Source: Candidatus Omnitrophota bacterium (GTDB taxonomy: Bacteria; Omnitrophota; Gorgyraeia; Ghiorseimicrobiales; Ghiorseimicrobiaceae). From it: DNA of 64,000 nt. The stretch lies in contig JAUXSB010000014.1 of the NCBI GenBank assembly GCA_030681595.1, positions 23,942-87,941 on the forward strand, written 5' to 3'. Each line of letters opens with the position of its first letter. Position 1 is the first letter of the stretch. Below are positions 2,017 through 63,250 of this stretch, one piece after another. Made by a program: the position numbers and the translations under genes. The notes under the pieces were generated by a model. That model did no database searches and had not been told where the DNA came from. It saw only the letters and a program-made list of their open reading frames with translations.

Positions 2017-2364
2017 CATGCTTTACGAATTCCTACTTTTTATACGGAATACGGCAACCCGACTACCATATCCCGACGCAACGTGGCTTTGGCTATTATC
2101 GAACGCCAAACCACTACCATCTGGCTTGTCGGAACTTAGGCTCGCGGCTTTACGCCCTATCTTTTCAGATAGTTTGCCTTTATCCCGTTAGAGGCCTTTC
2201 TAAAATATATTTATAATACCGTTTTTGGCAATACTCACCTCTAAAGGGCATATTTTCATTACATATTTCAAAGAGCTTCTGTGGCTTGGGCTATTCGGAG
2301 GCCCAACCACTGCCTTCTGGCTTGTCGATTTCTTAGCTTAAGTATACCACATAAATAAGATATT

Positions 2365-41127: not shown

Positions 41128-41205
41128 TGGTCGGGAAGGGCGGACTTGAACCGCCGACCTCTTGCTCCCGAAGCAAGCGCTCTAGCCAAACTAAGCTACT
41201 TCCCG
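41128..41205 (-). tRNA. tRNA-Pro (anticodon CGG), CCA encoded
   Basis: Hand-folded reverse complement CGGGAAG-TA-GCTTAGTTTGGCTAGAGC-GC-TTGCT-TCGGGAG-CAAG..GGCGGTTCAAGTCCGCC-CTTCCCG-ACCA: 7-bp acceptor stem, GTTCAAGTC T-loop, anticodon loop TTCGGGA. Confidence 0.85.
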
Positions 41206-46385: not shown

Positions 46386-49300
46386 CTAAACCAAATACAC
46401 GTCGATTTTCTTGATTAGGCCAGAGCGGATTTTTTCTGCGTAGGGGTGGGTGATAATACCGGACTTTATGGTAATAAGTTCTCCGCTATCATCTTCAAAG
46501 ATATACATTCCGACAGAAACACCTTTAGGGCCGAATGTATTTCGCAGCTTAGGATTATGATAGACAACTAAAGTTTTATTTAAGAACTTAAAAGAGTAAT
46601 TTTTTTTCTTGGTGAATAGTTTTTTGTGCAGTATCGGCTTAAATTCTAAGGTTAACTTCCCTTCTTTATCTAATTTAAAAAGGTTAAAGCCGATGTTCAT
46701 TGCCAGCCAGATGCTGATAAACTCAGCGGTCGAGCCGGAAAGACGCGCAACAAAGCCGTTACCGTGAAGACTATCGTCGCAAAATGCACTGCTGGCCAAA
46801 AATGAAGAATTCTCTAAAATACTCCTACCGTATTTTTTGGCATCCAAAAACGGAATAAAGCAATTAAAGAAATCATTATAAAACTCTTCGTATAAACCGC
46901 ATCTTAATAATTCAAGCAGGAATTTATACTCCATGTGCAGCCATACCGATTCGTTTTCCAGCCAACCCGGAGTGAACACTCTGCATCTGCCGATTTCAAT
47001 GGGCGCTTCTTTAAGCGGCGCGCAAACCTTATACATTTTAAGCTTCCTGTCGTAGAGCGAAGACGAACGTATTGCCTTGTATAAACTGGCGGCCTTAGCA
47101 GTGTCTTTTTCTAACCTTAAAGCGTGCACCTGCGCTTCTAAGAAAAACGGCAAAGGCTCCTGCTTAAACTTACGCACTCTTACAGAGCCGGAGTATAACT
47201 CATAATCAACTACTTCGTTTATAAAATAAGCCCGGTAAATGCCTGTCTTTTTATCAACGGCGCGGGATAGCCCAAAAGATATCTTGCGCTCTGCCGCATT
47301 AAGAATAGAAAATAATTCCGCCAGCTTAATCCCGCTTTCTTTCCCGCTAAACCCGAATCTGCTGTTTGCCCTGTAGCCTTCCTTTAAGGCATACGCCTTA
47401 TCCCAAAAGATAAAATCCCGCTCTTTACTGCCAGACGCGAAATATTCCTCAAGCAGTTTGCCTAAATTTTTCAGGAAATTATTTATTTCCAAAGGTAAAA
47501 TCATATCCTCATATTGAAAAGCGCGCGAATTTTTTAGCGCATCTTTAATAAAAATAATAAGGCGCTTCAGCTCAAAAGTTTCATTAGTAGATGAACCGAA
47601 AAGCGCGGGCAGGCCGTTTAAAGAATCAAACCAATTTGGTTTATTTGCCTCCATTTCAACGCCTATCCCTTGCGCGTCCAGCGAGGCAAGCTTATTTACA
47701 AAAAGACAGAGCAGCTTTGTCAGCAAGCTTACATAAATGATATCTCCCTTGCCGAAATCCGCCCTTACCCTATGCGCATCATGCGCTCTTGAACGGATTA
47801 ACTCCTCCTTCTCGGGGTCTTTTTTAAGCGAATGATGCTGGGATACCTTATTGGCGCCAGTTAAAACATACTTTACATCACGCGGCTGGACTATTTCAGC
47901 ATTATCAAAAAAGCTAAATATTTTTTTATCAACAAATATCTCTTTTAGTTTTTCAGGATATAAGGCGAGGTAGCTTTCTATTAAGTCTAAGTTATACGCC
48001 CAATGGTCGCTCCAGAACCCTTCAGAATGTTCCGCATCCTCTATTCTCGCGGATAAACATAGCGCCTCCTTAAGAAACTCCGGCATATCAACATCCAGCC
48101 CGATGTTGTTTTCTTCGATAAGCATAGCAAGCGAGCCCGGAGTAAATGGTTTGTTAAAAAATTGGCCCAAATTTTCCCTGTCTTTCGTGTCAACAATATG
48201 GTTTAAAAGTTCAGGTCTATTCTTTTCTTCCAAGGAAAAACTTAACCCCTTAATTACTAATGGGTTAAAACCATCGGTTTGAATGAGATTTAAGAAATCC
48301 ACCAGATTCGACTCCGCCACATCCGAATTAAACCAGTTATCCGAACGGCGGTTCTGATTCATATCACGGTAATTACCGTTACCTTGAGAAAAATACGTCG
48401 GGCTAAGCAAAAAATTATTGTAATCGCGCTCTAAATCTCCGTGCTTACGAGAATAGAGATAAAATACGGATTTTTTACCTGCACGCGAAAACGAGACGGG
48501 ATATCCGCCCCTTAAAACATTATCTAAAAATGTCTGTTTTGCGTATAAGTTAAACTCACCAAAAGCGCTTTCCGTGTGAATATTATCCTCAATTTCTCGG
48601 ATTAAGTTTGCGTTTTCCTGCTGCTTTTCCTGAATAAAACTATTGTTTAGAATCCTCTCGATCTGAGGAATTAACTTTTCCTTACCGGAAGCATATCCAA
48701 CGATAGAAAAAATTGACTTAGGCTCATCCGGCTTAATAGATGAGCTGAAATAAGAAAAAGCGCACGGGGTCCTGCTTTCTTTAATCTGTTTTGATAAGGC
48801 GGGGTTAAATTTTTCCTTGTTGATGAAATTACGGGGATAAGAAAAATCGCCTTGGCCGAACAGGCATACCGGGTCAACTATAGCATCAAGCAGCTTATTC
48901 TTATTGCCCTCGCGGCAGAAAGGAAGGTAAAAATTCCCCCCCTCTATATAAAAAGTCTCCGGCCTGTCTGCAGGGTCAATATAAAGGTTGTAAAAAGGAA
49001 TCTTATTATTCAAGAAATCAACGCGCATCCATGCTTCAATAGTGCGCGACATGTCTTTTAAGAAAAAGTTAGCTGTGCCATAAGGCGTAATTTTAGGCAG
49101 CCCGTCAACCGCTTCTATTTCAAGGATTTTTTTTCCGGTATTTGTAATTTTTAATTCTCTGATTATCGCGGCTATGGGTTCGCCGGAAAGCGTAAAATAA
49201 CGCACATCAATTTTCAGGCCAAGAAGGGGATTTATTTCCTCTAAAGCAAGCTCGTAAGATTTAATCCTCATTAGGCGGCGTAAGTCAAAAGAAAGATTAT

Positions 49301-49613
49301 CCAGGCTGTCCTGAAAAGGCTCATAATAGGCAACCCTTGAGCCGTTTTTAACTTTCAGAAATGTCCTGAAGCCTTCAGATGCGGCAGACTGCCATGCCTG
49401 ATTCGCGGGAAGGAATTCCAGAATAGAATGATTTTTATCCTTGGTGCCGAAGCTGATTACGAGTTGCCCGCGGTTGACATAAAAAACCCACATCGGTATC
49501 CCGAAGAAACCGGCAATACCCGGGAAAAAGCTGGCAAACGGCTTCGCGGAATTATAATTTTCAATTACAAACTCACCGGTTTTATTATCAAGGTAATATT
49601 TTGGTTTTAACAT
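46386..49613 (-). CDS. Large (1075 aa) protein of unknown function, possibly carbohydrate-active
   Basis: Long uninterrupted ORF; Trp/Asp-rich segments (FWSDHWAYNLD, GNGNYRDMNQNRR) and an adjacent sugar kinase give only contextual hints. Confidence 0.55.
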   Translation of the reverse strand: MLKPKYYLDNKTGEFVIENYNSAKPFASFFPGIAGFFGIPMWVFYVNRGQLVISFGTKDKNHSILEFLPANQAWQSAASEGFRTFLKVKNGSRVAYYEPFQDSLDNLSFDLRRLMRIKSYELALEEINPLLGLKIDVRYFTLSGEPIAAIIRELKITNTGKKILEIEAVDGLPKITPYGTANFFLKDMSRTIEAWMRVDFLNNKIPFYNLYIDPADRPETFYIEGGNFYLPFCREGNKNKLLDAIVDPVCLFGQGDFSYPRNFINKEKFNPALSKQIKESRTPCAFSYFSSSIKPDEPKSIFSIVGYASGKEKLIPQIERILNNSFIQEKQQENANLIREIEDNIHTESAFGEFNLYAKQTFLDNVLRGGYPVSFSRAGKKSVFYLYSRKHGDLERDYNNFLLSPTYFSQGNGNYRDMNQNRRSDNWFNSDVAESNLVDFLNLIQTDGFNPLVIKGLSFSLEEKNRPELLNHIVDTKDRENLGQFFNKPFTPGSLAMLIEENNIGLDVDMPEFLKEALCLSARIEDAEHSEGFWSDHWAYNLDLIESYLALYPEKLKEIFVDKKIFSFFDNAEIVQPRDVKYVLTGANKVSQHHSLKKDPEKEELIRSRAHDAHRVRADFGKGDIIYVSLLTKLLCLFVNKLASLDAQGIGVEMEANKPNWFDSLNGLPALFGSSTNETFELKRLIIFIKDALKNSRAFQYEDMILPLEINNFLKNLGKLLEEYFASGSKERDFIFWDKAYALKEGYRANSRFGFSGKESGIKLAELFSILNAAERKISFGLSRAVDKKTGIYRAYFINEVVDYELYSGSVRVRKFKQEPLPFFLEAQVHALRLEKDTAKAASLYKAIRSSSLYDRKLKMYKVCAPLKEAPIEIGRCRVFTPGWLENESVWLHMEYKFLLELLRCGLYEEFYNDFFNCFIPFLDAKKYGRSILENSSFLASSAFCDDSLHGNGFVARLSGSTAEFISIWLAMNIGFNLFKLDKEGKLTLEFKPILHKKLFTKKKNYSFKFLNKTLVVYHNPKLRNTFGPKGVSVGMYIFEDDSGELITIKSGIITHPYAEKIRSGLIKKIDVYLV

Positions 49614-50670: not shown

Positions 50671-50898
50671 TTATAGCGCTTCGACTTGCTTTATCTCAGG
50701 GATTTCTTTTTTAAGCATCTTTTCTACGCCGTTTTTAAGCGTCATCTGACTCATCGGGCAACAACCGCAGGTGCCGGTAAGCTTTAAGCGTACGACATTA
50801 TCTTGTGTTACCTCAACCAACTGCACGTCTCCGCCATCCGCGGCAAGCATAGGACGGACCTTATCCAACGCTTTTTCTACCTTTGCTTTATCAATCAT
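50671..50898 (-). CDS. nfuA: NifU-like (Nfu) Fe-S cluster carrier domain protein
   Basis: LTGTCGCCPMS CxxC-type motif in a 75-aa protein. Confidence 0.8.
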   Translation of the reverse strand: MIDKAKVEKALDKVRPMLAADGGDVQLVEVTQDNVVRLKLTGTCGCCPMSQMTLKNGVEKMLKKEIPEIKQVEAL

Positions 50899-51527
50899 TT
50901 TGCCCTCCCGGTTATTTTAGATAGTAACCTATTATGCTTTAAACAAAACTTTCCGCTTTTCACTTGCGAATATATCAAATCTTCCTGCCAGTGGGCATTG
51001 TATAAGCGGCAACTTTTGGATTTACAGAATGGCTCGCCGCGCAAATAAAAGAACATCGCCTGCGCCGCTAATCCCTTTACCACTTCCAAAAGGCGCTTAT
51101 CGTTATAATCAATGAAACGGCCTTTTAATTTTTGCTTAAGCCTTGCCTCTTCCGGCTCCCAAAGTCCGCTGCCGGATAAACTCTGCTTTGCCAGATAATA
51201 TTCTCTCGGTTTTGCCGGCGCCTCAACTATGCCTGAAAGCGAAATTACCGAAGGATAACTAAAAACAGATGACCTTAGATGCATCTGCCTACCTTTGCCA
51301 TCGCCTGTGGCAAAAAGGCGCTTTGTAACAATTATAGCATACGCACCGGGCGTATCCCTAATTTTTTTCTGTGTTCCGATGACATCCAACAAGAGGCCGT
51401 TTGTTACAACTATATCTTTTGCTTTCTTAACAACTACGCTAACCTCAAATGTTTTTTCTAAGAAAGCCTTTATTTTTTTAAAATCCAGGGAACTATTTTC
51501 GTCATACAAATAAACTTTATTAATCAC
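50895..51527 (-). CDS. Hypothetical protein with C-terminal cysteine cluster
   Basis: 210 aa; CKSKSC ... CLKH cysteines; no family recognised; translationally coupled in the Thi4 operon. Confidence 0.4.
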   Translation of the reverse strand: MINKVYLYDENSSLDFKKIKAFLEKTFEVSVVVKKAKDIVVTNGLLLDVIGTQKKIRDTPGAYAIIVTKRLFATGDGKGRQMHLRSSVFSYPSVISLSGIVEAPAKPREYYLAKQSLSGSGLWEPEEARLKQKLKGRFIDYNDKRLLEVVKGLAAQAMFFYLRGEPFCKSKSCRLYNAHWQEDLIYSQVKSGKFCLKHNRLLSKITGRAK

Positions 51528-51538
51528 GAATTTATAAG

Positions 51539-52342
51539 CTATTTATTCTTTTTTAAAATCTCCAGCGCGACCTCTGCGGCTTTTTTACCGGACAAAAGCA
51601 TTGAGCCGAAAGTCGGCCCCATCCTTGGAAGCCCGTAGGTCGTGGAAACGCTCATACCGCAGACAATCAAGCCAGGGTGCGCTTCTTGTGTATATTCTAT
51701 GACCAAGTCTTCCGAACGCTCAACCCACATTGCGCCAAACCCGACTTTTTTCATGATACCGCGCTCTTCAAGCTTTGATACAACGCAAGCATCATGGCCG
51801 GTTGAATCAATAACCAGTTTTGACTCGATTGCCACCGGGTCAACACAGGTTATCTCGCGAGGCAAAGCTTTTACCGGCGTCCAGTTAATTACCACGCCTG
51901 CCACACGGTTATCTTCGCGTAAAACCACATCTTCGAAAATGGTCATATTGGCAAATTTTACCCCGGCATCACAGGCAGAGGCAATAAGCTTTGAACAGGC
52001 ATGCGGCCCTTCAGCGACATAAAGCCCCTTTGAATATTCTTTATGGGGTATACCCAATTCTTTTAAAACTTTTTCTGCCGGCGCCCTTACCGTCAACGTA
52101 TTCATTAAGTAGCCGCCAATCCAAAATCCGCCGCCTAAGTAGTTATTCCTCTCGATGATAAAAACCTTAACTCCGGCACGCGCCAAATTGCGGCCGCACA
52201 TAAGCCCGGAAGGCCCTGCGCCGATGATTACACAGTCAGAATCCACATAACTCTGGAATTGTTTAGAAAACTGATCTACAATTGCCCGTGTTACTTCCTT
52301 CTCTCCTACCTCAGCAAAAATCTTTTTATGTTTCTGTGCCAT
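51539..52342 (-). CDS. thi4: Thi4-family thiazole synthase
   Basis: FAD-binding [12 protein letters not shown] motif and Thi4-type core; 267 aa. Confidence 0.8.
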
Positions 52343-52445: not shown

Positions 52446-52685
52446 TTACTCAATAATATCTCCTATTACCGGTTCAACCACTACTCCGGCTTTTTCCAAA
52501 AATTTAATTCCTTTCTGCAGGTTTTCCTCTTTACCGTCTAATTCCAAGACTATCTCGCCGATTTTATCGGTTACCCGCGCTCTTCTAATATTCGGCATCA
52601 CGTCAAATTTCTTCGCCATCTGAAAAGTCAAAGGCTGTTTTATGGTTTCGCCGGTAAAAGTAAGTTTTACGATTTTTTTAGCCAT
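52446..52685 (-). CDS. Stand-alone NIL-domain protein
   Basis: VKLTFTGETIKQPL...FDVMPNIRRARV...GEIVLELDG...VVVEPVIG parallels the NIL domain at the C-terminus of MetN. Confidence 0.7.
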   Translation of the reverse strand: MAKKIVKLTFTGETIKQPLTFQMAKKFDVMPNIRRARVTDKIGEIVLELDGKEENLQKGIKFLEKAGVVVEPVIGDIIE

Positions 52686-52934
52686 TATTTATCCTTTCAA
52701 TGAGCGCATAACTTACGAATACACAGTATGAGTAAGTTATTTGCGCGAATTGATGCCGAAAGCTACGGGAAAATTTAGTATAAATTTTCGCAGTGTTTTG
52801 CTTTCGGCGCAATGCATAACTTACGAATACACAGTATGAGTAAGTTATTTGCGCGAATTAATCCCGATAGCTACAAGAAAATTTAGTATAAATTTTCGCA
52901 GTGTTTTGCTATCGGGGCCAATTAAATATTCCTG
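52686..52934 (-). promoter_or_regulatory. Two tandem copies of a two-hairpin leader module immediately upstream of the NIL gene start
   Basis: Each copy: hairpin ataacttac-N15-gtaagttat, then GC-clamped stem (gccgaaagc/gctttcggc in copy 1, cccgatagc/gctatcggg in copy 2) enclosing AT palindrome gaaaatttagtataaattttc; ends in the Shine-Dalgarno context of the gene. Confidence 0.55.
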
Positions 52935-53750
52935 TTATTCCATCTCTTCTTTTATCTGACAAGCCTGCTGTTCATAATCTACTAACTTAGTAATCGTAGG
53001 GTGATCCGAGCAAACCGCGCAGTCATTATCTTTGGGCACCTTGACTGTGCGAAAAGTTGAGGTAAGCGCGTCAAAGATAAGCAGCCTCCCTGTTAATAAT
53101 TCCCCGATACCCAAGATAAATTTTAAAACCTCATTTGCCTGCAATACCCCCAGGATACCGGCTACCGCGCCCAATATACCCCCTTCCTGGCAAGAAGGCA
53201 CTGCTCCCGGAGGGGGCGGTTCAGGGAAAAGGCAACGATAACACGGCCCGGCCTTCGGTAATATAGTCATAATCTGGCCGTCAAACCTGAAAATTCCCGC
53301 ATGCACAAGCGGCTTTTTAGTCATCACGCAGGCATCGTTTACCAAAAAACGGGTAGGAAAATTATCGGTTCCGTCTACGACTATATCATAATTTTTAAGT
53401 AAAGCTAAAATATTTTCTGAATTTATCCTAAGGTTATAAGCATCAACTTTTACATCCGGGTTAAGCTCGGAAAGCCGCCTTCTGCCTGATTCTGCCTTAG
53501 GCATCCCCACACTAGGAGTGCTATGAATAATCTGGCGTTGCAAATTATTCACTTCAACTTTATCGGAATCCACCAAACCAATCCTACCTACGCCAGCCGC
53601 CGCCAAATAAAGGGCGCTTGGAGCGCCTAAACCGCCTGTGCCGATAATCAGCACTTTAGCATTTAAGAGTTTCTCCTGCCCCTTTCCGCCCACTTGCGGA
53701 AGGATAATCTGGCGTGAGTAGCGCTCAATCTGTAAATCATTTAAACTCAT
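52935..53750 (-). CDS. ThiF/MoeB-family E1-like adenylyltransferase
   Basis: GTGGLGAP nucleotide-binding motif, zinc-binding CYRC and CAVC pairs; no rhodanese domain. Confidence 0.85.
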   Translation of the reverse strand: MSLNDLQIERYSRQIILPQVGGKGQEKLLNAKVLIIGTGGLGAPSALYLAAAGVGRIGLVDSDKVEVNNLQRQIIHSTPSVGMPKAESGRRRLSELNPDVKVDAYNLRINSENILALLKNYDIVVDGTDNFPTRFLVNDACVMTKKPLVHAGIFRFDGQIMTILPKAGPCYRCLFPEPPPPGAVPSCQEGGILGAVAGILGVLQANEVLKFILGIGELLTGRLLIFDALTSTFRTVKVPKDNDCAVCSDHPTITKLVDYEQQACQIKEEME

Positions 53751-54031
53751 TATTCTGAACCTCCGGCTATAGCAGGGATAATTGATACTTCATCATTATT
53801 TTTCAATTCTGTGTCATATCCTTTTAAAAAACGGATATCTTCGTTGTTGACATAAAAGTTAATGAAACGGCGGATTTTACCGTTTTCGTCGCAAATCCTT
53901 GCTTTTACCCCGGGGAAACGTTTTTCCAGATCATCCACCAGTTCATTAATATTACCTGCTTCAACTTCTACCTCTACCTTATTCTGCGTCAATTTCTGCA
54001 GGGGTGCCGGGATTCTCACTTTTATAGACAT
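53750..54031 (-). CDS. ThiS/MoaD-like sulfur-carrier protein with 2-residue extension beyond Gly-Gly (..IAGGSE)
   Basis: 93-aa protein ending AGG-SE; stop overlaps the ThiF/MoeB start. Confidence 0.65.
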   Translation of the reverse strand: MSIKVRIPAPLQKLTQNKVEVEVEAGNINELVDDLEKRFPGVKARICDENGKIRRFINFYVNNEDIRFLKGYDTELKNNDEVSIIPAIAGGSE

Positions 54032-54268
54032 ATTTTTATCCTTTCAATGAGCGCATAACTTACGAATACACAGTATGAGTAAGTTATTTGCGCGAATTGA
54101 TGCCGAAAGCTACGAGAAAATTTACAATAAATTTTCGAGCGTTTTGCTTTCGGCGCAATGCATAACTTACGAATACACAGTATGAGTAAGTTATTTGCGC
54201 GAATTGATGCCAAAGCCTACGCAATCCCGAAATTTCAGGACAAGCGTTTAGGCAAGGGGCGCTACCAT
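54032..54268 (-). promoter_or_regulatory. Leader module (one full copy plus a partial second copy) immediately upstream of the sulfur-carrier gene
   Basis: Same ataacttac/gtaagttat hairpin and gccgaaagc/gctttcggc stem around palindrome gaaaatttacaataaattttc. Confidence 0.55.
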
Positions 54269-55522
54269 TTAAATTGAATAATGATCGGCCGTCGGACGCT
54301 TCTTTTGTTCTTCTTCAAAAGAACCTAAACTCGGCTTTATTTTTAACGGCTTTGCCAACTTATCGGCCACCACTTCCTGCGTTTTTAAACCGTTTCCGGT
54401 AATACATATTACGATTGACTCATCCTTTGGGATACGCTTCTCTTTTATAAACTTTATCGTTGCCGCAACCGTAACTCCTCCGGCAGTCTCAGTAAATATG
54501 CCTTCGGTCTCAGCCAATAATTTAATCGCATTAATAATTTCGTCATCGCTTGCCGCCTCTGCCCAGCCGCCGGACTTTTTCACTACATCATAGGCATAAA
54601 AACCGTCAGCAGGATTTCCTATGGCTAAAGACTTGGCGATTGTTTTTGGCTTAACCGGCTTAATGATTTCATTATCTTCTTTTATCGCGGTAACTATAGG
54701 AGCGCAGCCCTCGCCTTGCGCCACATAAAGTTTTGTTTTAAATTCAGGAATTAAGCCTAATTGATAAAATTCCTGCAGCGATTTTTTAATTTTGGTAACC
54801 AGAGAACCTCCTGCCGCAGGCACAATTATATGCTTAGGCGCGCGCCATCCTAATTGCTCGGCAATCTCAAAACCGTAGGTCTTTGAACCTTCGGCATAAT
54901 ATGGGCGTATGTTGATATTTACAAATGCCCACTTATATTTAGCGGCAATCTCGGAACACAGGCGGTTTACTTCGTCATAATTCCCTTCAACCTTTACTAG
55001 CACCGGATTATAAATTGATGAGGCGATAATTTTGCCTTGCTCTAAATCCGCCGGGATAAAAATAAAAGCGCGCAGCCCCGCGATAGCGGCATTTGCCGCA
55101 ACAGAATTAGCCAAATTTCCTGTTGAGGCACAGGCAACCGTGCGGAAACCGAATTCTTTAGCCTTTGAAAGAGCAACCGCCACAACCCGGTCTTTAAAAG
55201 AAAGGGTGGGATGATTTACCGAATCATCTTTTATGTAAAGCTCTTTTACGCCTAAAACTTTAGCTAAATTATGCGACCGGACGAGCGGAGTAAATCCGGT
55301 TGTTAAGCCATCACTCGGCTCTTTAGAAAGCGGCAATAACTCCTTATACCTCCACATATTCTTGGGGCGTTTCTCTATTTCCTGGCGCGTAAGCACCTTT
55401 TTAATCTTATCGTAATCATAAGCTACTTCTATTGAACCAAAACAATACTCGCAGACAAATAATATATTTGCCGGGTATTCCCGCCCGCATTCGCGGCATT
55501 TTAGGCCTTTTACGTAAGACAT
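54269..55522 (-). CDS. Threonine synthase-family PLP enzyme with N-terminal zinc ribbon (function in this context uncertain)
   Basis: CRECG...CEYC ribbon; PLP-lysine motif PTLSFKDR; 417 aa. Confidence 0.75.
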   Translation of the reverse strand: MSYVKGLKCRECGREYPANILFVCEYCFGSIEVAYDYDKIKKVLTRQEIEKRPKNMWRYKELLPLSKEPSDGLTTGFTPLVRSHNLAKVLGVKELYIKDDSVNHPTLSFKDRVVAVALSKAKEFGFRTVACASTGNLANSVAANAAIAGLRAFIFIPADLEQGKIIASSIYNPVLVKVEGNYDEVNRLCSEIAAKYKWAFVNINIRPYYAEGSKTYGFEIAEQLGWRAPKHIIVPAAGGSLVTKIKKSLQEFYQLGLIPEFKTKLYVAQGEGCAPIVTAIKEDNEIIKPVKPKTIAKSLAIGNPADGFYAYDVVKKSGGWAEAASDDEIINAIKLLAETEGIFTETAGGVTVAATIKFIKEKRIPKDESIVICITGNGLKTQEVVADKLAKPLKIKPSLGSFEEEQKKRPTADHYSI

Positions 55523-55526
55523 ATCC

Positions 55527-57869
55527 TTACCCTTTCTTAATCAGAATCCTGTAAAACTTACCTTCTTGTTTTACGCTTAATACCTGGTGGCCGTCATTCT
55601 TTAGGCTCTCAGGCACATTCCTTATCGGCTCCCCTTCGTCAAGAATTACCTCTAATATATCACCGGTATCTAAATCTTCCAAGGCCAGCTTCGCCTTGAT
55701 ATAATTTATCGGACAAGGGGTGCCTTTTAAATCCATAATTCGCTTTGGCGCCTCATTATTTTTTAAAGAAGGTTTTGATTCACCTGCGCAATTAGGGAAA
55801 CTAAACGATGGATCCATGCTTTTATATAGCTCATTTATATGAGCAGTAAACTTCCCGGCATAAAGGAATTTCTCTTTTTTCTGTTCCGCATTAAGCTTAT
55901 CATTTATAGCCTTAAAAACATTTTCTATATCGGCATATTCGTCTGAAGCGATTTTTGCATCAACAAATTTTTTCTTAAACTCCGATACCGCATCCTCCGG
56001 ATTATATGGATCTACGCCCTTGACTATTAAAAGGGCGCGGGAGGCGCTAAAAAATGCCTTCTTTATTTTTTCAATATCATAAGATTTTTTTTCTGCCTCC
56101 TCTATCGCAATCTTAGCATCGGCTAAATCCGCCTCAATCATATCAATAACCCCGGCGCCACATTCGCCTGTACCCAGGCCGGATAAAGAAAAATCATCTT
56201 CTCTGCCCCAGTCAACATAAAAATTACGGCCTTCTAAATAAGACGGCATATAGGCATGCCTGGCCAAAAGTTCCTTGGCAATGACTACCGCCTCAGCCTC
56301 CAGGAATTCATAAATATCAATGCTTTCCCGGAATTTTTCTTCCACCTTATTTAAGAATTCTTCTAAAAAAAGCGGGGCATTTTTTGCCGCAATCATACCC
56401 GCCTCTTTGGCCAAAGCCGTCTTCTCCGCTTCCCTTCTGCCGCCCAAAAGTACTTTGTAAAATGGCACCGGGCGGTTATCTACTCTCTTTGCCGCGCCAA
56501 CAAAAGAAATCTTGCCTATGGGATGCTGACCGCAGGAATTAGGGCAACCGTTTAATTTTATATCCAGCCTCTTAAATACCTCTTTACCGATAAAGCGTGC
56601 CTTAATCATTTCTTCTATCTTGCGGGAAAGCGCCGGTGAATTACATAAACCCAGGTTACAGGTTGTCGCTCCCTTACAGACAGTTACGTCCAGAAGCGTA
56701 TCGGGATATAAAAAATCCTGTAAAATATTTTTTATTTTTAGAAAAATATCAAAGAGGCAGCTATTCTCAACCCAAGCGATAGCAATATCCTGGCTCTGCA
56801 GGGCGCGGAATTCGATATCCTTAAAATCGCCTTCTAAGCCGGCAAGTGCTGCCAGTTCTTCTGCTTTAATATCGCCCTGCGGGATACGCAGTAGAATACA
56901 GGAGTACCCTTTTTGGCGCTGAGGCCTTATATTATACCTCAAAAAATCCCTGTATTGCTTATCTTCTTTTACGGGGATTTCTGAATTTATCTCTTGCATG
57001 GAAAACGCCTGTATATCTTTTAACGCGATATGCTCTGCGTCTTTAACCGCCTTAAACTCGCTTAAATATAATTTTTTAAATTCATCTAGCCCCATTTTTT
57101 CAACCAGAAACCGCAAGCGGTTGTGATGCCGGTCTTTTCTGTCGCCGTTTTTGTAAAAAACATTTTTTAAAGCAGTTACGCAATAACCTAATTCGCTCTC
57201 GGGGATGAATTCTTCCAAAAGCTTCCCTATCCGCGAGCTTGCCCCCAAGCCTCCGCCGACAAAAATTTTAAAACCTTTTTTCCCGCCACGGATATCAGCA
57301 AGTAAGCCGACGTCATTTATCAATATGCCGCTGCAATCTTTAACGCATCCTGAAAACGTAATTTTAAACTTGCGCGGCAGCATAAAAGAACTTTCCTGCC
57401 GTAAAAAATATTCGGTCAGGGCAATGGCATTGGCCCTTACATCAAATACCTCATCTTTACATATTCCGCTAAATGGGCAAGCAGTAATATTCCTCAAAGT
57501 ATTTCCTCCTCCGCCGCGCGGCGAAAGGCCGTAGTCTTGCAGGTAATCAATAACTTTAAACGTATCTTCTAATTTTATATTGTGTATCTGAATATCCTGC
57601 CGTGTCGTTATGTGCAAGCGCCCGTCGCCGTATTTTTTAGCCGCCTCTGCTAATGCCTTTAACTGCGCGGTATTAACTGCGCCGGCAGGGATTCGTATCC
57701 GGCTCATAAATGCTTTTCCCCCGCGGTGCGAATATACACCCCATGGCACACGCACGCCCTTAAAACGCGCATCAGGAATTTTATCTGCTAAAAATTCCTC
57801 CAGGGAACGCCGGTAATTTTCCGCATCCTTTTTTACTTCTTCCGGTAAATTAAATAAATTATAATTCAA
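55527..57869 (-). CDS. Siroheme/[4Fe-4S] sulfite (or nitrite) reductase fused to a C-terminal TusA-like domain
   Basis: Two reductase half-domains with CxxxxC and NGCPNSC cysteine motifs; C-terminal about 70 aa ([35 protein letters not shown]...) has the TusA/SirA-like two-layered fold signature. Confidence 0.75.
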
Positions 57870-58788
57870 AGTACTGCTCCATACTGAAATAGCGCTCGCC
57901 CGTATCGGGAAATACCGTAACTACTTTTTTCCCTTTGCCTAATGCGCCTGCCACTTTTAATGCCGCCCAACAGGCAGCGCCGCTGGATATACCCACAAAC
58001 AACGACTCTTCCTTACATAATCTTTTAGAGGTAAAGAAAGCATCATTATCGCTGACTTGAATGATTTCGTCAATAATTTCCCTGTTTAAGACTTTGGGGA
58101 TAAACCCTGCGCCTATGCCTTGTATCTTATGCGGGCCGGGCTTTCCACCGGATAAAACCGGCGAATTTACCGGCTCAACCGCTACAATCTTAACCCGCGG
58201 ATTTTTCTCTTTTAGTACCTCGCCTACGCCTGTGATTGTGCCGCCAGTACCAACGCCGGAAACAAAGGCATCTATCTTTCCGCCTGCCTCTTCTAAAATT
58301 TCAAGCGCGGTCGTACGGCGGTGCACCTCGGGGTTTGCCGGATTATTAAACTGCTGAGGCATAAAGGCACCGGGAGTATTACACACTAACTCTTCGGCAT
58401 ACCTTACTGCCCCGCTCATTCCTTCGATTCCGGGAGTCAAAACTATCTCCGCACCGTAGGATTTTAAAATATGCCTCCTCTCTAAACTCATTGTTTCAGG
58501 CATGGTTAAAATTACCTTATACCCCTTAACCGCTCCGATCATACTTAAGCCGATACCGGTATTTCCACTGGTAGGCTCAATAATAACCGACCCGGGCTTA
58601 AGCAAGCCTTTCTTTTCGGCATCTTCAACCATGGCAAGGCAAATCCTGTCTTTGACCGAGCCGCCGGGATTGGCAGATTCAAGTTTTGCAAAAATTTCTG
58701 CCGAATTAACCTCCGGCATCTTTCTTAATTTTACTAAAGGGGTATTTCCGATTAACTGCGCAACACTTTCTACAGTTATTCTAGGCAT
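57859..58788 (-). CDS. cysM: Cysteine synthase (CysM/CysK family, PLP-dependent)
   Basis: SVKDR PLP-lysine motif, GTGGT motif; probable start MPRITVES, 4 nt after the carrier stop. Confidence 0.85.
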
Positions 58789-58792
58789 AGCC

Positions 58793-59026
58793 TCACCTCT
58801 TAAAATAAAAATTCCGGCGGATTGAGCCACCACCCATAAAATAGACAAACTCTAACCTGTCGCCTTCTTTTATTGCCACTGAGCCGTAATCTTTTCTTTC
58901 TATGATATTGTCGTTTAATTCTATTGTCACTACTTCCGGACGGATGTTTTTACGTTTTAATAACTCCGCAATACTTATATTTTTATCCAGCACCTCTTTT
59001 TTGCCGTTAATGGTAATATCTGCCAT
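58793..59026 (-). CDS. ThiS/MoaD/CysO-like sulfur-carrier protein with about 10-residue extension after Gly-Gly (..[15 protein letters not shown])
   Basis: 77-aa beta-grasp-sized protein; lies between JAMM and CysM as in the mec-cysO-cysM arrangement. Confidence 0.6.
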
Positions 59027-59038
59027 GTTTTTCTCCCT

Positions 59039-59482
59039 TTAATTCCTGATACTTACCTCGGTTACATTATTTTCTGCGATTCTAAACGCGCGGATTTGCG
59101 GGTTAAATTTATCCGCCAGAGATACTATAACATAAAAACTTTCCGGATAAAATGCTAATTCCAGATCCTTTGCCGAAGGATATGCCGGGCTTTCCGTATG
59201 CGAATGATAAATCGCCACCAAATCCAATTCTTGCGCCCGGAGTTCCTTAAAAATCTTTAGCTGCTCCTTGGGATCTATAAGGTAGCAGAATTCCGGCTTA
59301 TCTGAAATATTTACTAAAGGATAAACCGAGGCTGCCTTAGCGGCCTTGCCTGCCAAAATCCCGCAGGCCTCTTTGGGGTAATTTTTTTGGCAGTCAGCAA
59401 TTATCTTATCCTGAATATCTTTTGCGATAAAAATCTTCTCTATTTTATTATTCATATGCCGTGCTGGCTCCTTCGCCAACAA
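59039..59482 (-). CDS. JAMM/MPN+ metalloprotease (Mec-like)
   Basis: E...HSHTESPAYPSAKD matches the JAMM zinc motif (HxH-x7-S-xx-D). Confidence 0.8.
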   Translation of the reverse strand: MLAKEPARHMNNKIEKIFIAKDIQDKIIADCQKNYPKEACGILAGKAAKAASVYPLVNISDKPEFCYLIDPKEQLKIFKELRAQELDLVAIYHSHTESPAYPSAKDLELAFYPESFYVIVSLADKFNPQIRAFRIAENNVTEVSIRN

Positions 59483-59551: not shown

Positions 59552-60487
59552 TTACGCCTCAAAATACTGTTGCACTGAAAAATACCTCTCTCCCGTATCC
59601 GGAAATATTGTTAATACGGTTTTATTCTTGCCTAATTCATTAGCGATAGAGAGTGCTGCAAATCCTGCCGCCCCCGCGGATATGCCGACAAACAAACCTT
59701 CTCTTTTAGCCAATTGTTTGGCGGTATTAAAGGCATCGCTATCAGAAACCGGGATTATCTTATCAATAATTTTGGTATTAAGGATATCCGGCACAAACCC
59801 CACGCCGATACCCTGTATCTTATGCGGGCCTGCCTTATGCCCCGATAATACAGCGCAGGTTTTAGGCTCAACCGCAACTATTTTAATCTCCGGATTATAC
59901 TTTTTCAAAATTTCGCCTACCCCGGTAATAGTTCCTCCGGTACCAACACCAGCAACAAAGGCATCTAAATTACCGCGGGTAACTTTCAATATTTCTTCCG
60001 CGGTTGTCTTGCGGTGTATTTCTGGATTAGCGGAATTTTTAAATTGTTGCGGCATAAAGCTATTATCGGTTTTCCTCAATAACTCTTCTGCCTTATCAAT
60101 CGCCCCCTGCATCCCCTTAAAATTAGGCGTCAATACTACCTCAGCGTCATATGACTTAAGGATATAGACTCTTTCTAAGCTCATCGCCTCCGGCATAACA
60201 ATGATACAACGATAGCCTCTTACCGCGCAAATCATCGCTAGGCCTATTCCGGTATTACCGCTGGTTGGCTCAATAATAGTATGGCCGGGCTTAAGCAGGC
60301 CTTTCTTTTCGGCATCCTCAATCATCGAAAGGCAAACCCTGTCCTTTACGCTCCCGCCGGGATTAAACATCTCTAACTTTGCCAAAACTAAAGCCGAATC
60401 TTTTCCTGTGATATGGTTTAACTTTACTACAGGCGTATTATAGATTAATTCCGTAATATCGTTGGCAACTCTATCTGAAAACGGCAT
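59552..60487 (-). CDS. cysK: Cysteine synthase (CysK/CysM family), second copy
   Basis: SVKDR and GTGGT motifs; clearly homologous to 57859..58788. Confidence 0.85.
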   Translation of the reverse strand: MPFSDRVANDITELIYNTPVVKLNHITGKDSALVLAKLEMFNPGGSVKDRVCLSMIEDAEKKGLLKPGHTIIEPTSGNTGIGLAMICAVRGYRCIIVMPEAMSLERVYILKSYDAEVVLTPNFKGMQGAIDKAEELLRKTDNSFMPQQFKNSANPEIHRKTTAEEILKVTRGNLDAFVAGVGTGGTITGVGEILKKYNPEIKIVAVEPKTCAVLSGHKAGPHKIQGIGVGFVPDILNTKIIDKIIPVSDSDAFNTAKQLAKREGLFVGISAGAAGFAALSIANELGKNKTVLTIFPDTGERYFSVQQYFEA

Positions 60488-60503: not shown

Positions 60504-61472
60504 CTATCGTTTAAATACTAATAATAAAAAATAAGAAAGTAAAACTGACAATAAAGGCGTAATCGCCCAAACAAAAAATGTCTTTTTGGTTATGTGGCTA
60601 CCTAATGTGTGGCGATGGCCATTTTTTAAACAACTAATCGCGAAAATCGCGGCAAGGTTTAACTGCACCAGCGACTGAGGAATTCCTAAAAAAGAAGCAA
60701 AAATAAGCAGGGTTGCCGTAACAAAAGAAACCAAGGTGCTTGAGACCAATCCCAACGGCACAATCTCTTTACCTGCGGTTTCAAGCGGCCCCTTTCCTAA
60801 AATACCGGCACCCACACCAAATAAAGGCGAAATCAAAAACAACCCCAAGTTTACGCTTATAAGCCCCGCGCCAAATAACGGCCCAACCGCGTTCGCCACA
60901 TTATTTGAACCAATAGCAAAAGCAACATAACAACTTGCCACTAAACTAGCTAACCTTATCTTTTTTTCATTAGAAAATATCTTCTGATAAATATGCAAGT
61001 TATCATGCTCAGGCGGATAAATATTCCTATATAATAAAAAAGTTAAGATATAAGAAGCTAGGGGCAAAATAACCCACATCGGTAGTATCTTTACAGACAA
61101 AGTAGCAAGATTAAGATGTTTAAAATATAGCCCCGCGCCGACAATAGCGCCTACTGTAACCTGGCTCGTGGACTGAGGAATCTTTAAAATATTAGCCAGA
61201 AAAAGGCTTAAAGCCGCAGAAATAAGAACTATTAAAGCTACATCAAAACTTATAAATTCGCTGGGTATTAAATTCTTGCCTAAAGTCAGAGAAACATTCC
61301 TGCCCAACAGAGAAGCGCCCAAAATAACAAAAATCCCAAATAAAATCAGGGCCTTATTTTTTCTTATTAATTTTCCGCCGTAAGCCGCCGCAAAAGAGGG
61401 TGCGATACCGCTGCCTCCCATATTTACGGCAAAAAATATTACAACTAGGATTAAAATAAGAGTTCCAGCCAA
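60504..61472 (-). CDS. PiT-family inorganic anion permease (candidate sulfate permease)
   Basis: Multi-TM protein with duplicated G(S/A)N(N/D)VANA-type motifs (NMGGSGIAPSFAAA; AIGSNNVANAVGPL). Confidence 0.7.
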   Translation of the reverse strand: MAGTLILILVVIFFAVNMGGSGIAPSFAAAYGGKLIRKNKALILFGIFVILGASLLGRNVSLTLGKNLIPSEFISFDVALIVLISAALSLFLANILKIPQSTSQVTVGAIVGAGLYFKHLNLATLSVKILPMWVILPLASYILTFLLYRNIYPPEHDNLHIYQKIFSNEKKIRLASLVASCYVAFAIGSNNVANAVGPLFGAGLISVNLGLFLISPLFGVGAGILGKGPLETAGKEIVPLGLVSSTLVSFVTATLLIFASFLGIPQSLVQLNLAAIFAISCLKNGHRHTLGSHITKKTFFVWAITPLLSVLLSYFLLLVFKR

Positions 61473-61487
61473 TTTATTCTCTCCTGG

Positions 61488-62213
61488 TTAAATTCCCGCG
61501 CCCTGGGTGTTTGTCTTAAGCGGCCGGGTGTGTATGCCGCATTCGCCACCGCATTTTGAAGTGCCTATCCAGCGGCCGGAACGCTCGTTTTCATCGCTTG
61601 AAATATGTGTGCATGGTGCGCATCCCAATGAACGGTATCCCGCCGCGTAAAGCGGGTTAACAAGGACTTGATATAAAGCCAAGTACTGCCAAACTTCGCG
61701 CTCTTTCCAGATTAATATAGGATTAAGCTTAACTAACCCCTTATCCCTTTCCTCCACTTCCTTATAGTCAGTGCGGGTCCTGCCTTCGGTGCAGCGTAGC
61801 CCCGTTACCCAACATGTTACATGCATTTCTTCTACAGCACGCTTTACCGGCTCAACCTTAAGTATATCGCAGCATTTATCCGGATCGGTTTTATAAAGGT
61901 CATTTGAAATTTGGGCATGGCTTTCATAAACTTTTAATTCCGGATAACGGGCCACGGCTTCATGCATAAACTTTTTGGTCTCCGCCGGCTTAAATCTGGT
62001 AGTAACAATAAACCCCTTTATCTTCGGGTTTACCTTTTTGGCTAAATCCCAGACTGCTACCGAATCCTTACCTAAACTGTTTGCTACGACTAAACCATCC
62101 TTATACTTTTTATAAGCCTCTTCGATAAGCGCAAGCGACCTATCTACTTTCTCTTTAAAGTTTAGCTTCTCCACCAATTCCTTTAAATCATCCTTGTTGT
62201 TTAATAAACTCAT
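61488..62213 (-). CDS. cysH: APS/PAPS reductase-family protein (with CC...CxxC cysteine signature)
   Basis: PP-loop-like SLGKDS, C-terminal ECGIH motif, Cys pairs (KCC, CAPC); probable start MSLLNNK, since the ORF-track N-terminus runs through the leader repeat. Confidence 0.8.
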   Translation of the reverse strand: MSLLNNKDDLKELVEKLNFKEKVDRSLALIEEAYKKYKDGLVVANSLGKDSVAVWDLAKKVNPKIKGFIVTTRFKPAETKKFMHEAVARYPELKVYESHAQISNDLYKTDPDKCCDILKVEPVKRAVEEMHVTCWVTGLRCTEGRTRTDYKEVEERDKGLVKLNPILIWKEREVWQYLALYQVLVNPLYAAGYRSLGCAPCTHISSDENERSGRWIGTSKCGGECGIHTRPLKTNTQGAGI

Positions 62214-62370
62214 TTTACTTTTCCTTTCAATGAGCGCATAACTTACGAATACAGAGTATGAGTAAGTTATTTGCGCGAATTGATGCCGAAAGCTACGAGA
62301 AAATTTACAATAAATTTTCGAGCGTTTTGCTTTCGGCGCAATGCATAATCCCGAAGCTTCGGGATTACAG
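62214..62370 (-). promoter_or_regulatory. Leader module upstream of cysH, followed by the atcccgaagcttcgggat palindrome
   Basis: Same two-hairpin architecture and Shine-Dalgarno context as at 52686 and 54032. Confidence 0.55.
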
Positions 62371-62452: not shown

Positions 62453-62893
62453 TTAAACTGCGTACACCAACCTTTGTTTAGCTGATTTCACCTTGCTGAC
62501 CAAATCTTCGAAAGTCACATTATCCACTATTTCTGTGGCACTTTCTGCCACATCCCTCCAGATCTTCCTGAAGACACATCTATATAAATCCTTGCAATTA
62601 GAATATCCGCTTCCAACACAAGCGATAGGCTCGATTGGGCCGTCAATATACCTAACCACCTCTCCTAGTTTTATGCGTGAAGGGTGCTTAGCTAACAGGT
62701 ATCCGCCAATTTTCCCGCGCCGGCTTTCCACAAAACCGCCTTTTTTTAACTCTAATAGTATCTGCTCTAAAAACTTAACCGGTATATCTAACCTTTTAGC
62801 CAAATCATGAATAGCAATAACGCCGTTACCGTAATGTATAGACAGATCCAATATTGTTTTTAAGGCGTAATCGCCTTTATAAGTGATTTTCAT
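62453..62893 (-). CDS. Rrf2-family transcriptional regulator (CymR/IscR-like)
   Basis: N-terminal wHTH typical of Rrf2 (YALKTILDLS...); heads the sulfur cluster. Confidence 0.85.
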   Translation of the reverse strand: MKITYKGDYALKTILDLSIHYGNGVIAIHDLAKRLDIPVKFLEQILLELKKGGFVESRRGKIGGYLLAKHPSRIKLGEVVRYIDGPIEPIACVGSGYSNCKDLYRCVFRKIWRDVAESATEIVDNVTFEDLVSKVKSAKQRLVYAV

Positions 62894-62952: not shown

Positions 62953-63250
62953 GCGAAAAATGCAAACTTGCCGCGCCCGACCCGCCTGACTTCATTCGGG
63001 CAGGCTGAATGTCGTTCGGGCGGGCGCTTATTTTTCGCGCGATGCCCCGCCACAAAGCCCGCCACTAAAACATCAGCGGGTTCGCCTAAGATTTGTGGCG
63101 AACGTTGGCGGGCAGGCGCAAATACTTTAAATGAAACCATAAGTTATGGAAGCCTAAAGGCGACATAACTTATTTGGTTGAATTTATCCCGATACTTGCA
63201 AGAAAATTTAGAATAAATTTTCGCGGTGTTTTAGTATCGGGGCGCGGCGC
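62940..63250. repeat. Composite intergenic repeat (GC-rich palindromic units plus two-hairpin module), second copy of the 30890..31250 element
   Basis: Long stretches identical to 30900..31190; module stem cccgatact/agtatcggg around palindrome aaaatttagaataaatttt. Confidence 0.7.

Follow-up and report, generated by a model that had tools for sequence, protein, structure and literature searches.

How can two sulfur-carrier proteins, each of which continues past its Gly-Gly, be matured and activated when one JAMM protease and one E1 adenylyltransferase are encoded with them? The question arises from a sulfur-assimilation gene cluster in a 64,000-nucleotide stretch of DNA from Candidatus Omnitrophota bacterium (GenBank assembly GCA_030681595.1, contig JAUXSB010000014.1, positions 23,942 to 87,941), which we call the window. 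One carrier is of the ThiS type and its gene lies directly upstream of a cysteine synthase gene (cysK1). The other is of the CysO/MoaD type and its gene lies between those of a threonine synthase-like (ThrC-like) enzyme and the E1. A preliminary description of the sequence had suggested that both C-terminal extensions need proteolytic removal before adenylation and that the single JAMM may serve both carriers. Our explanation, to which we assign a probability of about 70%, is that the cluster is an operon leading from sulfate to amino acids through carrier thiocarboxylates, that the JAMM and the E1 are common to both carriers, and that the tails are neutral.

Two extended carriers, one JAMM protease and one E1

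The features on which the question turns are the following, with coordinates counted in the window.

58826..59026, minus strand: ThiS-type sulfur carrier, predicted beta-grasp core ending G65-G66-G67 (TIGR01683, 69.6 bits, cutoff 37.45; PF02597, 43.8 bits, cutoff 22.5)
58793..58825, minus strand: ten-codon tail of the ThiS-type carrier and stop codon (direct sequence reading)
53759..54031, minus strand: CysO/MoaD-type sulfur carrier, core ending G90-G91 (PF02597, 59.4 bits, cutoff 22.5; TIGR01687 moaD_arch, 54.8 bits, cutoff 49.5)
53750..53758, minus strand: Ser-Glu tail (two codons) and TAA stop overlapping the E1 ATG as TAATG (direct sequence reading)
59039..59482, minus strand: JAMM/MPN+ metalloprotease of the Mec+/HcyD type (PF14464 Prok-JAB, 88 bits, cutoff 25)
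52935..53750, minus strand: ThiF/MoeB-type E1 adenylyltransferase (PF00899, 293.6 bits; NF004281 MoeB, 297.8 bits, cutoff 266)

The open reading frame (ORF) of the ThiS-type carrier (58793..59026, minus strand) encodes 77 residues, in which FMGGG is followed by 10 more. The final position of the TIGR01683 model aligns to G67, so that the tail comprises residues 68-77. The closest structure is that of Geobacter ThiS (3CWI/2K5P), which likewise has FMGGG. The Gly-Gly aligns to the C-terminus of Bacillus subtilis ThiS and is internal here. AlphaFold predicted residues 1-62 of the 77-residue protein with a predicted local distance difference test score (pLDDT) of about 90 and as strand-strand-helix-strand, which corresponds to the beta-grasp fold; the tail was predicted at pLDDT 51-65, without secondary structure.

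The MoaD-type ORF (53750..54031, minus strand) encodes 93 residues ending in SIIPAIAGG-SE. The protein aligns end to end with CysO of Mycobacterium tuberculosis (3DWG_C, E-value 2.6e-16, residues 1-91 against 1-93) and with CysO of Amycolatopsis orientalis (4N6E_B, E-value 2.6e-20), alignments that predict a beta-grasp fold for it as well. Because the terminal Gly-Gly of CysO matches G90-G91, the tail consists of S92 and E93. The ThiS and MoaD profiles did not cross-match, which places the two carriers in different beta-grasp subfamilies. Both C-termini had been described before as extending beyond Gly-Gly (the second as IAGG-SE), and the ORF list, the raw sequence and re-translation all agree with that description.

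The zinc site of the JAMM is intact: EACG and HSHTESPAYPSAKD together give the E...HxHx7Sx2D motif. Its closest solved structures are 2KKS, 2KCQ and PfJAMM1 (5LD9). The start of the gene is ambiguous. The ORF runs from a TTG at 59482 (147 residues), and an alternative ATG at 59455 (138 residues) is preceded by an AAGGAG motif and fits the 132-residue homologues better. The JAMM gene lies 12 nucleotides upstream of the ThiS-type gene, next to the first carrier as originally reported; its distance to the MoaD gene is about 5 kb. The E1 translation shows a GTGGLG nucleotide-binding motif together with CYRC and CAVC (CxxC zinc site). It lacks a rhodanese domain, with the ThiF domain covering residues 11-245 of 271, and the MoeZ model NF005902 matches over only the first 279 of its 392 positions.

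We searched the window for further members of these families with tblastn and with family-specific profile Hidden Markov Models (HMMs), each built from about 40-75 orthologues, against all six-frame ORFs. No second JAMM, E1 or carrier was found in the 64 kb. For this window, the earlier statements that there is only one JAMM and a single ThiF/MoeB E1 are therefore correct.

Carrier ends and JAMM genes in related loci

We scanned the ThrC-like protein against one genome per species, which yielded 80 loci, and obtained 2 further loci from exact-protein look-ups. For every locus, stop-to-stop ORFs were matched to the window proteins, and carriers were counted over 79 related loci. The loci come from Omnitrophota, Saganbacteria, Margulisiibacteriota, Elusimicrobiota/Endomicrobia, Planctomycetia, Nitrospirota/Thermodesulfovibrionia and Caldimicrobium. 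Wherever the contig reaches far enough, the core consists of the genes for the ThrC-like enzyme, MoaD, (E1) and a NIL-domain protein, in that order. The usual order upstream of this core is a PiT-family permease, JAMM, ThiS/CysK and sulfite reductase/TusA.

Tails are the rule in both carrier families and are not peculiar to this genome. Among 74 MoaD-type C-termini, 16 end at Gly-Gly, 45 carry tails of 1-20 residues, 8 are fused to the NIL protein and 5 are fused to the E1. The ThiS-type carriers (n = 38) comprise 25 fused in frame to CysK and 13 separate proteins, all tailed (1-19 residues). The ending ...AIAGG is invariant in the 120 closest MoaD-type homologues and nearly all of them have SIIPAIAGG; 30 stop there and 90 continue, 89 of them for 1-14 residues and one for 50. 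The first tail residue shows no preference in this set and the tail sequences are unrelated. Across the ThiS-type homologues, FVYFMGGG is nearly invariant and is followed by 0-21 unrelated residues, with only 2 of 28 sequences ending at GGG. An invariant Gly-Gly followed by a variable stretch, or by a whole fused enzyme, supports the earlier suggestion that the tails need proteolytic removal.

The fusions bear directly on cleavage. Several of the ThiS-CysK fusions (which include L001 5271-6410, L003 6124-7254, L005, L009, L011, L013 and L014) pass from GGG directly into the native Met-Pro-Phe-Ser start of CysK, for example GGG-MPFSDRI. With CysK's own N-terminus immediately after GGG, a cut at this point would be obligatory and would release the native enzyme. 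Cleavage at Gly-Gly would likewise be obligatory for the MoaD-E1 fusions, found in loci of the Elusimicrobiota/Endomicrobia type (L041, L048, L053, L060 and L063), and for the MoaD-NIL fusions, found in loci of the Planctomycetia type (L049, L050, L052, L054, L055, L062, L071 and L079). Such fusions would be the limiting case of a tail, in which the stop codon has been lost.

The distribution of the protease points to one JAMM for both carriers. Exactly one JAMM was found in 27 of the 37 two-carrier loci and two JAMMs in 0 of them; nor did any other of the 79 related loci contain two. A JAMM of the same family, with its active site intact, is present in 17 loci that have the MoaD-type carrier alone, with layouts such as TusA, E1, JAMM, ThrC-like, MoaD, NIL or JAMM, CysK, ThrC-like, MoaD. 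In the remaining loci, the JAMM usually adjoins the ThiS or ThiS-CysK gene or sits just upstream of it. The JAMMs of related loci are 29-58% identical to that of the window and keep the catalytic motifs in all cases, and no identity split separates those of two-carrier loci from those of MoaD-only loci. The strongest available evidence that the window JAMM would serve both carriers is thus that one JAMM family accompanies either carrier alone as well as the two together. Conserved one-JAMM synteny and the in-frame fusions suggest that it cleaves after the carrier Gly-Gly, whether a tail or an amino-acid adduct follows. The proposal that one JAMM may serve both carriers gains support from the one-JAMM loci, from the MoaD-only loci that have a JAMM, and from published precedents (see below). 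As far as comparison of loci can tell, the joint use of one JAMM and one E1 by both carriers is well supported, though not proven.

Why the tails are there at all may be explained by the gene junctions. The 3' end of the MoaD gene reads GCC GGA GGT TCA GAA TAA TG, with the stop codon overlapping the E1 start. The Gly-Gly codons, GGAGGT, spell the Shine-Dalgarno motif GGAGG 8 nucleotides upstream of the E1 ATG (window 53748-53764). Of 30 non-redundant MoaD-E1 junctions, 20 place the E1 start 5-8 nucleotides after the Gly-Gly codons, irrespective of how long the tail is (0-4 residues), and in 16 of these 20 the Gly-Gly codons read GGAGG. At junctions with a long spacer, they mostly read GGCGG or GGTGG and a separate Shine-Dalgarno motif is visible. 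The Gly-Gly codons of MoaD would usually double as the Shine-Dalgarno motif of the E1, and the length of the tail is set by where the carrier frame meets a stop. At the other carrier, the end of the ThiS-type tail, AAGAGGTGA, lies 7 nucleotides before the cysK1 ATG, and AAG AGG TGA, the codons with which it closes, double as the ribosome-binding site of cysK1 (ATG at 58788). From the DNA of these junctions, the tails look like neutral by-products of a carrier frame that crosses a tightly coupled gene junction. Tails would be tolerated since a Gly-Gly-specific protease is present anyway.

Proposed pathway and competing explanations

The neighbouring genes that define the context of the carriers are the following.

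62453..62893, minus strand: Rrf2-family transcriptional regulator, first gene of the cluster (PF02082 Rrf2, 123 bits)
61488..62213, minus strand: phosphoadenylyl sulfate/adenylyl sulfate (PAPS/APS) reductase (PF01507 PAPS_reduct, 136.6 bits)
60504..61472, minus strand: PiT/PHO4-family permease (PF01384, 144.4 bits)
59552..60487, minus strand: CysK2, second cysteine synthase paralogue (TIGR01139 cysK, 438.6 bits)
57859..58788, minus strand: CysK1, cysteine synthase directly downstream of the ThiS-type carrier (TIGR01139 cysK, 461.5 bits)
55527..57869, minus strand: assimilatory sulfite reductase of the siroheme/4Fe-4S type with a C-terminal TusA domain (PF01077, PF03460, PF01206 TusA)
54269..55522, minus strand: ThrC-like pyridoxal phosphate (PLP) enzyme with an N-terminal CxxC...CxxC zinc ribbon (PF00291; TIGR00260, 289.8 bits)
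52446..52685, minus strand: stand-alone NIL-domain protein of 79 residues (PF09383 NIL, 65.3 bits)
51539-52342, minus strand: Thi4, sulfide-dependent thiazole synthase
50895-51527, minus strand: DUF6775/DUF7001 'probable metallopeptidase', directly after Thi4

From 62893 down to 52446, every gene is on the minus strand and the genes are tightly packed. Their order is Rrf2, PAPS/APS reductase, PiT, CysK2, JAMM, ThiS-type carrier, CysK1, sulfite reductase-TusA, zinc-ribbon ThrC-like enzyme, MoaD/CysO-type carrier, E1 and NIL; Thi4, the DUF6775 protein and NifU follow downstream of the NIL gene. The Rrf2 gene holds the same position in many related loci. The start of the PAPS/APS reductase is likely the ATG at 62213, which has the start-codon context that the NIL and MoaD genes also have, and the mechanical ORF extends to 62432 across a repeat element described below. 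In most related loci the PiT gene immediately precedes the JAMM gene, and we take the permease to be a sulfate or sulfite importer. The TusA domain (PF01206) occupies residues 712-779 of the sulfite reductase, and the two are fused or adjacent in related loci.

The PLP enzymes among all genes between 52446 and 62893 are the two CysK paralogues and the ThrC-like enzyme; every gene in this interval is accounted for and none is of the MetY type (O-acetylhomoserine sulfhydrylase). CysK1 and CysK2 are 67% identical and together flank the JAMM-ThiS pair, and most relatives have a single CysK. Both fall in the clade of the carrier-fused CysK domains of relatives, to which CysK1 is slightly closer than CysK2 (21 vs 8 comparisons). 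CysK1 is the presumed partner of the ThiS-type carrier. Given the presence of Thi4, that carrier would not be needed for thiamine synthesis here.

The ThrC-like enzyme is, by sequence, a paralogue distinct from housekeeping threonine synthase. Solved ThrC structures align to it only from about residue 55 and lack the zinc ribbon, which is present in 85 of 85 ThrC-like orthologues. Nitrospirota loci (L038, L045, L064-L066, L070, L075, L076, L078, L080, L082 and L084) encode in addition a canonical, ribbon-less ThrC, 34-39% identical, two genes downstream in the same operon. The NCBIfam name threonine synthase (TIGR00260) is probably a misannotation for the ribbon-bearing enzyme, which we infer to be a MetM-like homocysteine synthase. 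A MoaD-type carrier gene follows it in every related locus that reaches far enough, and in nearly all related loci the NIL gene accompanies this pair downstream as a constant partner. In MetN, NIL is the regulatory domain that binds methionine, and the domain is also found in the methanogen homocysteine pathway.

We propose the following pathway. Sulfate or sulfite would be imported by the PiT permease and reduced by the PAPS/APS reductase and the sulfite reductase. The JAMM would trim both carrier precursors, and the rhodanese-less E1 would adenylate the C-terminal glycine of each. Sulfide, probably delivered by the reductase's own TusA domain, would turn the acyl-adenylate into a thiocarboxylate. 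CysK1 would use the ThiS-type thiocarboxylate to make carrier-bound cysteine, and the ThrC-like (MetM-like) enzyme would use the CysO/MoaD-type thiocarboxylate to make carrier-bound homocysteine. Release of the amino acids would again fall to the JAMM, which would so recycle as well as mature both carriers. It would recognise the beta-grasp body and the Gly-Gly, and cut off whatever follows, be it a tail, an attached amino acid or, in relatives, a fused enzyme. Where a JAMM hydrolyses the carrier-amino-acid adduct at each turnover, as Mec+ and HcyD do, even a carrier whose last residues are Gly-Gly would depend on it. On this scheme, the organism would make cysteine and, probably, homocysteine through two carriers. 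Some relatives have the MoaD-type carrier only, together with both CysK and the ThrC-like enzyme, so that this carrier may be able to serve both enzymes.

Several points weigh against this interpretation. We infer all the enzymatic steps, which carrier goes with which enzyme, and that both the JAMM and the E1 accept the two carriers; the matching of carriers to enzymes is read from gene adjacency and fusions. Recognition of two beta-grasp subfamilies by one JAMM and one E1 is plausible, though not a trivial matter. In sequence the MoaD-type carrier resembles CysO, and mycobacterial CysO serves cysteine synthesis, not homocysteine synthesis. The 64 kb in view are part of a genome that may encode another JAMM, E1 or carboxypeptidase. 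Finally, 10 of the 37 two-carrier loci have no JAMM in the fetched stretch. Most of these have short upstream flanks, but at least one has a flank of 8.5 kb, which means that in some lineages the JAMM is encoded elsewhere or is dispensable.

Of the other explanations, a division of labour survives best, although we consider it unlikely. In this case the JAMM would act on the ThiS-type carrier only, and the MoaD tail would be removed by a second JAMM or an unspecific carboxypeptidase outside the window. The proximity of the JAMM to the ThiS gene and its distance from the MoaD gene, the different subfamilies of the carriers, and the restriction of our view to 64 kb would all fit, as would the presence of the DUF6775 'probable metallopeptidase' (50895..51527) in the same gene string. 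However, the JAMM family is kept beside the ThrC-like/MoaD pair in the 17 ThiS-less loci, no locus has two JAMMs, and the MoaD-E1 and MoaD-NIL fusions would need a Gly-Gly-specific endoprotease rather than a carboxypeptidase. We rejected the DUF6775 protein as a second tail-trimmer because it travels with Thi4 and not with tailed carriers: the pair recurs in 9 of the 11 related loci that have Thi4, and DUF6775 is absent from most loci with tailed carriers.

A function for the tails themselves, either as a safety catch that holds the carrier inert in the absence of JAMM activity or as a peptide that docks to the partner enzyme, seems to us slightly less probable again. Most homologues have a tail or a fusion, and the 10-residue tail has the same length and is identical at 8 of 10 positions in two relatives of the ThiS-type carrier that are themselves 90% identical to it (P0002 and P0003). 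This conservation is no higher than that of the core, however. Tail length and sequence are unconstrained overall, 25% of the close MoaD-type homologues are tail-less, the ThiS-type tail is predicted to be disordered, and the overlaps with ribosome-binding sites and start codons explain the tail DNA.

It is more doubtful still that the carriers are chiefly protein modifiers, as in sampylation or urmylation, with the JAMM acting as a deconjugase. Archaeal SAMPs both conjugate to proteins and carry sulfur, and we found NCBIfam matches to SAMP1 (58.2 bits, cutoff 60), UbaA (332.9, cutoff 450) and the desampylase (90.9, cutoff 130), but all of these are under the curated cutoffs. Every neighbouring gene belongs to sulfur assimilation or encodes a PLP enzyme of the sulfhydrylase type, the carriers of relatives are fused to CysK, E1 or NIL, and, among solved structures, the MoaD-type carrier is closest to the CysO sulfur carriers.

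Miscalled stop codons or a frameshift, with proteins that truly end at Gly-Gly or a hidden ThiS-CysK1 fusion, can be set aside as an explanation: the ThiS-type gene and cysK1 are indeed only 4 nucleotides apart in different frames, with the CysK1 frame open for 20 codons upstream of its ATG, but a stop-free stretch of this length is near the chance expectation, the ATG of cysK1 follows a good ribosome-binding site, the stops are read directly in the sequence, and the lengths of 77 and 93 residues are kept in proteins that are 90-100% identical and come from independent assemblies (P0001-P0003 and P0032-P0034, respectively).

The proposal of a shared JAMM and E1 with neutral tails can be extended to the whole family of operons, which spans at least six phyla. 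These may form a ubiquitin-style precursor system for primary sulfur assimilation, in which the carriers would routinely be made as pro-proteins or in frame with their own partners (ThiS-CysK, MoaD-E1, MoaD-NIL), the single JAMM would be the obligatory maturase and recycler of all of them, and NIL would be a constant, hitherto unrecognised component of thiocarboxylate-dependent homocysteine synthesis, for example a methionine-sensing regulator; we regard the odds for and against this extension as about even.

The control of the cluster may involve a lineage-specific repeat of about 108 nucleotides, for which no strand is assigned.

54032..54268: two copies of the repeat, between the ThrC-like and MoaD genes
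52686-52934 and 62205-62348: further copies
63166-63243: partial copy

All copies of the repeat lie in 5' regions, namely those of the NIL, MoaD, PAPS-reductase and Rrf2 genes. Its unit contains a 33-nucleotide near-palindrome, ATAACTTACGAATACACAGTATGAGTAAGTTAT, which is present in 5 copies (0 expected by chance) and lies about 23 nucleotides upstream of the start codon, and a second long hairpin. The RNA fold of the repeat has z = -7.6. No Rfam match was found for the repeat, and it is absent from all 84 related loci searched, so that it is uninformative on the conserved mechanism. It may be an operator of the adjacent Rrf2 regulator, an element of the 5' untranslated region or a small mobile repeat, and its placement implies at least three similarly controlled units in the cluster. 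Rfam detected no S-adenosylmethionine (SAM) or other riboswitch in the sulfur cluster. Elsewhere in the window, and unrelated to the carriers, are a cyclic di-GMP-I riboswitch (2050-2188, minus strand, 67.1 bits, gathering score 35) and a tRNA (41131-41205, minus strand). An ORF of 1075 residues (46386-49613, minus strand) has no Pfam match at E ≤ 0.001.

Comparison with known carrier systems

A shared JAMM and E1 acting on carriers with removable tails is a design that is already known in other bacteria and is common among the relatives studied here. Since the mechanism is established elsewhere, the value of the locus lies in annotation and evolution rather than in a new concept. It fills in the making of cysteine and methionine in uncultured, mostly anaerobic lineages, namely Omnitrophota and their neighbours. 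Standard annotation as 'ThiS', 'MoaD' and 'threonine synthase' misassigns these genes to the synthesis of thiamine, the molybdenum cofactor and threonine. The locus also offers a simple reason for the frequent junk tails on prokaryotic ubiquitin-like carriers: once a Gly-Gly-specific JAMM is there to hydrolyse adducts, a carrier's stop codon would be free to drift into the ribosome-binding site of the next gene, or to vanish and leave a fusion. No experimental characterisation appears to exist for the frequent in-frame fusions (ThiS-CysK, MoaD-E1 and MoaD-NIL), for the combination of CysK with a ThiS-type carrier or for the constant NIL partner.

The CysO-CysM-Mec+-MoeZ(R) system of M. tuberculosis likewise combines a carrier thiocarboxylate that feeds a PLP enzyme of the CysK/CysM type, a JAMM and an E1 that serves several carriers. 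Mec+ acts by hydrolysing the adduct of CysO and cysteine, and MoeZR is the activating enzyme for MoaD as well as for CysO (PMC3227635). In contrast to the window carrier, mycobacterial CysO ends at Gly-Gly and is tail-less. The mycobacterial E1 has a rhodanese domain, whereas the window E1 has none and a TusA domain is found on the sulfite reductase instead. The pairing also differs, as CysO works with an O-phosphoserine-specific CysM, the CysO-like carrier of the window adjoins the ThrC-like enzyme and CysK adjoins the ThiS-type carrier.

A match in gene content is the type 4e neighbourhood of ubiquitin-like proteins, JAB proteases and E1 enzymes, which comprises a rhodanese-less E1, SirA/TusA, PAPS reductase and sulfite reductase, and in which the JAB was predicted to free fused ThiS/MoaD proteins (Iyer, Burroughs and Aravind 2006, PMC1779556). 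The window contains this set in full: ThiS/MoaD, JAB, rhodanese-less E1, TusA, PAPS reductase and sulfite reductase. The acceptor enzyme in type 4e is O-acetylhomoserine sulfhydrylase, whereas those of the window are CysK and a ThrC homologue.

The HcyS-HcyD-HcyF-MetY system of Wolinella succinogenes, also of type 4e, likewise has a tailed ThiS-type carrier, a JAMM and a rhodanese-less E1. In work attributed to Krishnamoorthy and Begley in 2011, HcyD reportedly cuts off the single residue that follows Gly-Gly in HcyS and, at a later step, sets homocysteine free; the sulfide is said to come from the sulfite reductase of the operon, which also encodes PAPS reductase and SirA/TusA. Wolinella has a MetY partner, one carrier and a one-residue tail; the window has no MetY, two carriers, and tails of 10 and 2 residues.

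For the second acceptor enzyme, a parallel is the MetM/MetO homocysteine pathway of Streptomyces albulus, where the thiocarboxylate of a carrier is put to use by a ThrC homologue (Hasebe et al. 2024, relayed through the GapMind 2026 preprint and PMC12172450). According to the preprint, Mec is needed for MetO maturation and MoeZ for loading, and both are common to the cysteine pathway. As in the window, the threonine-synthase homologue described there adjoins a small sulfur-carrier gene. The differences, as far as these accounts go, are that metM is reported with an upstream SAM riboswitch, which does not define the pathway and of which Rfam found none in the window cluster, that the E1 is a MoeZ with a rhodanese domain, which the window E1 lacks, and that the pathway steps as listed name no NIL partner, which the window has.

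Residues beyond Gly-Gly that are removed by a cluster-encoded JAMM before adenylation are also a feature of the thioquinolobactin (QbsE/QbsD) and chuangxinmycin (CxnE/CxnF) systems. QbsD trims CF after the Gly-Gly of QbsE, and CxnF has been proposed to remove a decapeptide from CxnE (PMC5925218), so that a 10-residue tail such as that of the ThiS-type carrier is not unusual. Those are secondary-metabolite clusters with one carrier each, whereas the window cluster belongs to primary sulfur assimilation and has two.

A further parallel is with the precursors of eukaryotic ubiquitin and ubiquitin-like proteins and their deubiquitinases, where an extended or fused beta-grasp protein is likewise released by a protease that recognises the fold together with Gly-Gly. 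The ThiS-CysK, MoaD-E1 and MoaD-NIL fusions of relatives are similar to such precursors. The product there is a protein tag, whereas the products of the window would, from their genomic context, be sulfur carriers.

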